DNA from: Pseudodesulfovibrio piezophilus C1TLV30
GTDB lineage: Bacteria > Desulfobacterota > Desulfovibrionia > Desulfovibrionales > Desulfovibrionaceae
Assembly: GCF_000341895.1 (NCBI RefSeq)
Contig: NC_020409.1
Location: 120,001 to 152,000 of the forward strand
Length of the DNA: 32,000 nt
Reading direction: 5' to 3'
Both the position numbers and the translations under genes were made by a program. The notes below the pieces were generated by a model. That model searched no databases and was not told where the DNA came from. It was given only the letters and a program-made list of their open reading frames with translations. Positions 22,143 to 22,222 of the stretch are shown piece after piece. Numbering within the stretch: the stretch's first letter is position 1; every line of letters starts with the position of its first letter.

Positions 22143-22222
22143 AGTATAAAGCAAAATCCATCGTAAGGTGAAGACGGAAAGCCTACGGGGCTCGCTTGCG
22201 AGATGGCCGGGTTGCCGAACGG
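22143..22222 (+). ncRNA. GEMM-I (cyclic-di-GMP-I class) riboswitch-like element, variant
   Basis: The blocks appear in GEMM-I order. First AAAGCAAAAUCC. Then a hairpin CAUC-GUAA-GGUG with a GNRA loop. Then GACGGAAAGCC-UACGGGG (the consensus as I recall it is GACGCAAAGCC). Then a second hairpin CUCG-CUUG-CGAG. Then AUGGCCGGGUUGCCGAAC, the conserved 3' GCCGGGUUGCCGA block. It lies about 150-230 nt upstream of tpsB. Boundaries are approximate. Confidence 0.5.

Follow-up and report, generated by a model that had tools for sequence, protein, structure and literature searches.

The leader of a two-partner secretion (TPS) operon in the window, that is, the whole stretch of 32,000 nucleotides analyzed here, carries a class I c-di-GMP riboswitch aptamer. 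Our main reading, to which we give a probability of about 0.68, is that this RNA is a c-di-GMP-I riboswitch typical of its lineage, located on a mobile TPS cassette with a lipase toxin, and that it is decaying in the window genome. The observations made directly are the homology, the pocket residues, the association with TPS genes, the covariation, the lesions in the window, and the occurrence of lesions in a second assembly.

We scanned the whole window, on both strands, against the 4227 families of Rfam 15 (cmscan). The sole match was to RF01051 (c-di-GMP-I) at 22141-22219 on the forward strand (44.9 bits, E value = 7.5e-6, model positions 1-87 of 87), which passes the curated gathering score of 35 bits. 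When 21900-22500 was searched alone with permissive filters, the E value of this match was 1.4e-7, and the other match in that region, to SAM-IV, was sub-threshold and was taken to be noise. A full-length match with these scores is far beyond chance, and the aptamer is therefore real. The preliminary description had recognized GEMM-I blocks in the TPS leader at 22143-22222 and had proposed a covariance-model search with RF01051; the search confirmed the blocks with a significant match. Two deviations that it pointed out, ACGGAAAGC in place of the block ACGCAAAGC and, at the 5' side, AAAGCAAAA in place of RGGCAAA, are also real. The aptamer and its key positions are as follows.

22141..22219, forward strand: c-di-GMP-I (GEMM-I) aptamer of type 2 (without tetraloop receptor), from the RF01051 match and covariation.
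22151, forward strand: G20, from the RF01051 model alignment.
22152/22177, forward strand: flipped pair C21-G46, from the RF01051 model alignment.
22153/22176, forward strand: mismatch A22·G45, from the RF01051 model alignment.
22157-62/22167-72, forward strand: helix P2, with the tetraloop GUAA at 22163-66.
22175, 22178, 22206, and 22215, forward strand: C44, A47, G83, and C92, respectively.

The ligand-contact residues of the window, G22151 (G20), A22178 (A47), and C22215 (C92), match the c-di-GMP set: the same three positions contact c-di-GMP in Vc2 (PMC4744006), and their columns are invariant in our alignment of 11 leaders (alignment A2). The interhelical Watson-Crick pair C44-G83, which is universally conserved in GEMM (PMC4744006), is C22175/G22206 in the window, and both of its columns are likewise invariant across the 11 leaders. 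The tetraloop-receptor columns (CUAAG/UAUG) are deleted and P3 is without the 11-nt receptor; the type 1 trait, a GNRA loop docked into a tetraloop receptor, is absent from the window aptamer. Since receptor-less GEMM RNAs of type 2 have the same makeup, this deletion does not exclude membership in RF01051. Judged by its sequence, the leader element is a genuine class I c-di-GMP riboswitch aptamer (GEMM-I) of the receptor-less type, and we infer that c-di-GMP is the ligand of the window aptamer and of its orthologs.

We then compared 80 genomic loci encoding TpsB relatives and added the contigs that carry the closest homologs from the database. Rfam models detected an aptamer upstream of tpsB in L001, L002, L004, L201, L202/L203, L204, L205/L206, L207, L208, and L210 (59-65 bits), which derive from Pseudodesulfovibrio, Salidesulfovibrio, and marine metagenomes. 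The distance from the aptamer to the tpsB start, placed in the orthologs from the Shine-Dalgarno context, was about 90-130 nt (about 135 nt in L207). No GEMM-I aptamer reached the Rfam gathering score in L003, L005-L078, or L209, and a loose regular expression for the aptamer found none in L003, L005-L080, or L209, with L079-L080 covered by the regular expression alone. This pattern of presence and absence indicates that the association is conserved but limited to a single clade of Desulfovibrionaceae-type cassettes. Across the 11 leaders of alignment A2, the aptamer helices were 96-99% paired, P2 and P3 each had two compensatory pairs, and the observed covariation was reached by 0 of 500 column shuffles. 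The toxin tips of the orthologous exoproteins differ (phospholipase-like, TNT, Cytotoxic, and Colicin_E5, often with DUF637), and this swapping of tips indicates that the orthologous cassettes are CDI-like polymorphic-toxin systems. Full-text searches found no literature in which a c-di-GMP riboswitch is tied to contact-dependent inhibition or to two-partner secretion; the link between the riboswitch and a CDI-like TPS system appears to be new, yet unsurprising for so promiscuous a riboswitch class.

The orthologs also fix the register of the ligand pocket. The motif AAAG-CC-AAA...GAC-GG-AAAGCC is present in 10 of 10 orthologous leaders upstream of tpsB relatives, and because the CC of the orthologs pairs with GG in one register only, the register is that of G20/A47/C92. 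Both pocket-adjacent pairs are C-G in the orthologs. In the alignment, pair 83-108 is C-G in 11/11 leaders and pair 84-107 in 10/11, and sliding the helix partners destroys the pairing. A scan for AAAGCNAAA...GACGGAAAGCC...GCCGGG recovered aptamers with a flipped 21-46 pair (C-G) from at least 120 metagenome stretches; these listed matches plus the TPS leaders amount to 128 distinct flipped-type aptamers. Two alignments of the pocket had been offered in the preliminary description. The one that put A at the position of Vc2 G20, as in cGAMP-type GEMM-Ib, failed, for the residue is G22151 in the register fixed by the orthologs; the other, in which G20 is kept and the 21-46 pair is swapped to C-G, is the right one, given the CC/GG pairing of the orthologs. 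The A20 register (3',3'-cGAMP, GEMM-Ib) was rejected because it needs a G·G mismatch in the 10 orthologs and in the 128 listed flipped-type sequences: the orthologous GCC...GG fits the G20 register only.

Position 22 was C in 125 of the 128 listed flipped-type aptamers, U in 1, and A in 2, the latter being the window and L159 only. The genes downstream of the listed metagenome aptamers (at least 120) were very diverse, as expected for c-di-GMP riboswitches, and no TPS genes were found among them. On one short metagenome contig, L102, there are two GEMM-I aptamers, at 4-76 and 392-465 (reverse strand), separated by about 320 nt; one of the two has U at position 22. By this comparison, the TPS-leader lineage of the Desulfovibrionaceae and many other GEMM-I RNAs normally have the flipped C21-G46 pair, and A22153 is the only real oddity around the window pocket. 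The suggestion that the ligand pocket is unusual was thus not upheld, as G20, A47, and C92 are canonical and the flip is a frequent natural covariation. The lesson is that flipping of the 21-46 pair belongs to normal variation and should not be taken as evidence of changed specificity.

The earlier prediction of a TPS toxin operon downstream of the aptamer was borne out by the domains of its genes (ShlB/POTRA transporter, TPS exoprotein with a lipase C terminus, ankyrin protein), which are arranged as follows.

22325..24117, forward strand: tpsB (ShlB/FhaC-type transporter), disrupted, with its largest open part at 22543-24117.
24133..29457, forward strand: tpsA, intact, encoding an exoprotein of 1774 aa (TPS domain 157.6 bits, Fil_haemagg_2, adhes_NPXG).
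29384..30418, forward strand: gene for an ankyrin-repeat protein (Pfam Ank_4, Ank_2, Ank_3).

The window tpsB product matched ShlB (E value = 1e-92), POTRA_2, and POTRA_3 in Pfam, and a ShlB-type transporter with POTRA domains adjoining a TPS-domain exoprotein constitutes a TPS pair. The C-terminal 150 residues of TpsA matched PDB 7ubz_B, a lipase effector of a T6SS (E value = 6e-7), the lipase-like region occupying 28996-29346 of the window (TpsA residues about 1622-1738). There was no DUF637 match in the window TpsA, and an exact look-up of the window TpsA and of P0010 returned no match. The called start of the ankyrin ORF overlaps the end of tpsA by 74 nt, and the true start probably lies downstream of 29384; by its gene position, the ankyrin protein is a candidate immunity protein. 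The closest TpsB homologs were those of Pseudodesulfovibrio and Salidesulfovibrio, at no more than 74% identity.

The GC content of the cassette is 55-62%, against 43-53% (mostly 45-50%) in the remaining window (1-kb windows). Upstream of the cassette, an integrase fragment (20038-20400, reverse strand) and a DDE transposase fragment (20750-21067, forward strand) sit between a host core gene for aldehyde ferredoxin oxidoreductase (16864-18603) and the cassette. Together with the jump in GC content, these fragments indicate a degraded mobile island. Transposases also adjoin the orthologous cassettes in L201, L202, L205, and L209. An ORF downstream of the TPS cassette, at 31335-31934, encodes an AAA_5 (dynein-related/McrB-like) ATPase domain.

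Between the promoter region and tpsB, the leader contains several elements besides the aptamer.

22060..22088, forward strand: putative sigma-70-type promoter (-35 TTGACA at 22060-65, 17-nt spacer, -10-like TATTTA at 22083-88).
22103..22131, forward strand: 5' module, a G8 run at 22116-22123 followed by CUUCAACC, from alignment A2.
22221..22239, forward strand: hairpin H4, directly 3' of the aptamer (GGAG/CUCC stem, loop with CGUCA).
22241..22251, forward strand: C/U-rich tract GCUUCCUCUCU, counterpart of the conserved (A/G)UCUCC motif, at a position kept in alignment A2.
22313-19 and 22325-27, forward strand: Shine-Dalgarno GAGGGGG and ancestral tpsB start GTG, arranged as in the orthologs.

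The promoter was missed by a consensus scan because its -10 element is without the final T; a TTGAC(A/G/C/T) hexamer stands at the same upstream distance in all the orthologous leaders printed. The order of modules was the same in the 11 leaders: TTGAC box, hairpin H0, aptamer, H4, (A/G)UCUCC, and a G-rich Shine-Dalgarno sequence 50-100 nt further on (columns 36-49 of alignment A2 on the H0 side and 157-186 on the H4/UCUCC side). H0 (UUCC-AGGGGU-GGAA) is the ortholog counterpart of 22103-22131 and is partly degenerate in the window. Across the 11 leaders, 3 of 4 pairs in H0 and 8 of 8 modeled pairs in H4 change on both sides, and the CGUCA loop of H4 is nearly invariant. Just upstream of the leader promoter lies a 40-aa ORF (MAILDDEISAREAIEACEKYGRPFERLYVNPIRTGLSNAV, 21869-21991) without a family match, which is called as a gene in the metagenome contig L211 (107-229). 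It is followed by a terminator-like hairpin at 22023-38 with a G7 run; in L211 the run is G10 and the 5' arm differs, showing that the homopolymer length varies between strains or assemblies.

The preliminary description had proposed looking in the leader for a terminator or for a platform sequestering the ribosome-binding site. A scan of 22141-22400 found no intrinsic terminator, the only hairpin of that kind being the upstream one at 22023-38, and no ortholog has a U-tract after H4. Since the aptamer is not followed by a U-tract terminator, control is most likely exerted at translation initiation. In the RNAalifold consensus, the aptamer is enclosed by a pairing between the 5' G-run and the UCUCC tract, and the tract is also complementary to the Shine-Dalgarno sequence, which makes it a candidate anti-Shine-Dalgarno element or long-range pairing partner. 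Nevertheless, the energies of both duplexes (G-run with C/U tract, Shine-Dalgarno with C/U tract) were no better than those of shuffled controls, and no partner at a consistent position was found for kissing by the CGUCA loop. Shine-Dalgarno accessibility with and without a forced aptamer changed in no consistent direction in 9 leaders (all but L208 and L210), and the MFE folds of whole leaders are too noisy for interpretation.

In the ancestral cassette, binding of c-di-GMP would change the pairing of the flanking modules, namely, the 5' G-rich hairpin, the 3' hairpin with the CGUCA loop, the UCUCC tract, and the GAGGGGG Shine-Dalgarno sequence, and the changed pairing would set the expression of tpsB, tpsA, and the immunity gene. 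Both the control mechanism and its direction are inferred in this scheme. Our best guess for the former, from the modeled pairings, is translational control through competition for the C/U tract; as to the latter, activation at high c-di-GMP would, as a conjecture, suit a contact-dependent weapon.

The first gene of the operon carries two lesions in the window.

22372..22374, forward strand: loss of one nucleotide, a G that L211 retains, with a resulting frameshift in tpsB, from pairwise alignment with L211 and frame translations.
22486..22488, forward strand: in-frame TAG in tpsB in place of a Gln codon, from homolog comparison; the same TAG is present in L211.

The frame that begins at GTG 22325 is closed by TGA at 22379-81, and the signal peptide and mature TpsB are encoded in a different frame; TGA at 22372-74 closes that frame on the upstream side. 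At 22486-88 the window reads RQQ(stop)QIQ versus RQQQQIQ in the closest homolog. The open length of TpsB is 524 aa in the window versus 560-600 aa in the homologs, and the transporter of this TPS system is not intact (1-nt deletion, TAG). We also compared the locus with L211. This metagenome contig is independent of the window, to which it aligns at 99.6% identity, with 14 differing columns (substitutions and indels). The L211 aptamer is identical to that of the window, the three mismatches described below included, and the TAG is common to both; the substitutions are therefore real and shared. L211 is without the 1-nt deletion: it has an extra G near 22372, and its GTG frame is open through the signal peptide. 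By this comparison, the frameshift was added later, in the window lineage.

The aptamer itself has three non-canonical pairs in the window: A22153·G22176 next to the pocket, C22158·A22171 in P2, and G22190·A22203 in P3. They result from substitutions, relative to the orthologs, of A for C at 22153, A for G at 22171, and G for U at 22190, which are uncompensated and unique to the window copy; the affected pairs are intact in 10/10 orthologs. In total, 3 of 20 pairs are non-canonical in the window versus 0-1 in each ortholog, and just 5 of the 128 listed flipped-type aptamers are as mismatched as the window over 13 scored pairs. Thus, one pair is broken in each of P2, P3, and 22-45 of the window, in helices that are 96-99% paired in the ortholog set. 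The nearest-neighbor energy of the GEMM fold, which leaves out tertiary contacts, is -8.1 kcal/mol for the window versus -19.9 to -27.6 kcal/mol for the orthologs, and the fold lies 10.3 kcal/mol above the MFE in the window versus 0.7-3.9 kcal/mol in the orthologs. Folded alone, the window aptamer did not adopt the GEMM shape and was less stable than shuffles (z = +1.0), whereas the L201 and L208 RNAs folded alone formed P2 and P3. The RF01051 score of the window is 14-19 bits below those of L201 (59.3) and L202 (64.3). The three stem-breaking mutations and the broken transporter gene downstream suggest that the window riboswitch is probably a relic, and the fold predictions would be consistent with loss of its function. 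A point against this reading is that the window and L201 share 93% identity in the aptamer and only 74% in TpsB, so that the decay is recent and small. Decay would then have proceeded through A22153, A22171, and G22190, which break the pocket-adjacent, P2, and P3 pairs, and through the nonsense and frameshift mutations in tpsB.

A different reading is that the window riboswitch is still a working c-di-GMP sensor, with mismatches that tune its stability or affinity and with tpsA and the ankyrin gene still under its control. We consider this unlikely, although several points do oppose decay. The RF01051 score still exceeds the gathering threshold and the contact residues and GNRA loop are intact, but the three substitutions hit pairs kept in 10/10 orthologs. 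c-di-GMP binds GEMM-I RNAs very tightly, and ligand energy might rescue the weakened fold, which counts against decay; the predicted fold, however, loses 12-19 kcal/mol. While the intact 1774-aa ORF of tpsA and the ankyrin gene could still be expressed and the aptamer sequence persists in two strains, the first operon gene has been inactivated twice, and without TpsB the window locus would not export TpsA. Of the earlier proposal that a riboswitch gates a toxin operon, the placement of an aptamer in the TPS leader holds; gating itself is doubtful in the window genome because of the three stem-breaking changes, the fold lost in silico, and the frameshift and nonsense mutation in tpsB.

The TPS leader could also be a composite that couples c-di-GMP, and possibly a second input at the extra hairpins, to contact-dependent toxins, or the flipped-pair subclass could differ in ligand selectivity; we regard a reading along these lines as distinctly improbable.

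A narrower proposal, that the window aptamer is a specificity variant for 3',3'-cGAMP (A20) or for another ligand, as in the orphan class RF03167 (c-di-GMP-I-GGC), raises a question of annotation. RF03167 was the best match of most orthologs (59.3-65.6 bits) and of most listed flipped-type metagenome aptamers, with scores that reach or exceed its gathering threshold of 59 bits. It beat RF01051 at L001 2812-2890, L002 2794-2869, and L004 2068-2142, and the same preference was seen for aptamers in the range L204-L210 and for metagenome loci such as L135, L181, and L097. The window falls short of the RF03167 threshold of 59 bits: its score must be below 44.9 bits, because RF01051 was the model retained for it in clan competition. 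L201 and L202 likewise score best on RF01051 (59.3 and 64.3 bits).

The class c-di-GMP-I-GGC is said to have been described as an orphan variant by Weinberg et al. in PNAS in 2017. Its printed consensus, GGC-AAA...GAC-GC-G-AA, has G-C at 21-46 and G at 47, and we take "GGC" in its name to refer to positions 20/47/92, going by the printed consensus. The window and all orthologs have A47 (GACGG-A-AA), in a column that is unmatched in the RF03167 alignments and is an invariant A in alignment A2. We therefore rejected membership of the window and ortholog aptamers in the GGC variant at position 47 (A, not G). Many flipped-type aptamers pass the RF03167 threshold without G47, which we take to be the class-defining nucleotide, so automatic annotation would assign them wrongly to the orphan class.

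Altered specificity thus seems very unlikely to us. Beyond the RF03167 scores of the orthologs, it could draw on the flipped 21-46 pair and the A at position 22 of the window, but the CC/GG register, taken from the 10 orthologs and 125 other listed sequences, gives G20 and A47, the RF03167 consensus has G where these RNAs carry A and the column scores as a mismatch, and flipped-type aptamers precede very diverse genes, as c-di-GMP predicts. It is hardly credible that the locus is intact and that errors of sequencing or assembly produced the lesions and mismatches: the frameshift does involve a single base in a short G run (GTTGGAG versus GTTGAG), near a homopolymer that differs between assemblies (G7 versus G10), but the TAG and the three aptamer changes are substitutions, not homopolymer-length errors, and recur in the independent contig L211, which differs elsewhere (14 columns).

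Returning to a lineage-typical riboswitch in decay, the window copy mainly illustrates the joint decay of a regulator and its target gene. In the wider lineage, CDI-like polymorphic-toxin secretion in sulfate-reducing bacteria would be controlled by c-di-GMP directly at the RNA level, and the riboswitch moves together with the cassette even as its toxin tips are exchanged. If this is true, toxin deployment would be tied to the sessile, cell-dense state.

Among known systems, the c-di-GMP-I riboswitch Vc2 of Vibrio cholerae shares with the window RNA P2 with its GNRA loop, P3, the GAC bridge, G20/A47/C92, and C44-G83, and RNAs of the Vc2 type are likewise placed in 5' leaders of operons for secretion or surface functions. 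In contrast to Vc2, the window aptamer lacks the 11-nt receptor and has C-G at 21-46 and three broken pairs. Its expression platform has no U-tract terminator, and two additional conserved hairpins flank it. RF03167 has in common with the window and ortholog RNAs a short P3 without receptor, a modeled P1, and a very similar primary sequence; these RNAs have C-G at 21-46 and A47, whereas the model has G-C and G47. The 3',3'-cGAMP riboswitch is the GEMM-Ib of Geobacter (Kellenberger 2015; Nelson 2015; both cited in PMC7266159). GEMM-Ib uses the same GEMM-I scaffold in related (formerly delta-proteobacterial) lineages, but its signature is A20, and the window and all orthologs have G20. With CdiBAI, the cassette shares the gene order tpsB-tpsA-immunity, and the orthologous cassettes have DUF637 and the swappable tips TNT, Cytotoxic, and Colicin_E5; the window TpsA differs in having a lipase end, without a DUF637 match, followed by the ankyrin protein. 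The TPS adhesin system CdrAB of Pseudomonas aeruginosa is controlled via a c-di-GMP-binding transcription factor. CdrAB and the cassette described here would both be TPS systems under c-di-GMP control, but CdrAB pairs a protein regulator with an adhesin, and the cassette pairs a riboswitch with a polymorphic toxin.
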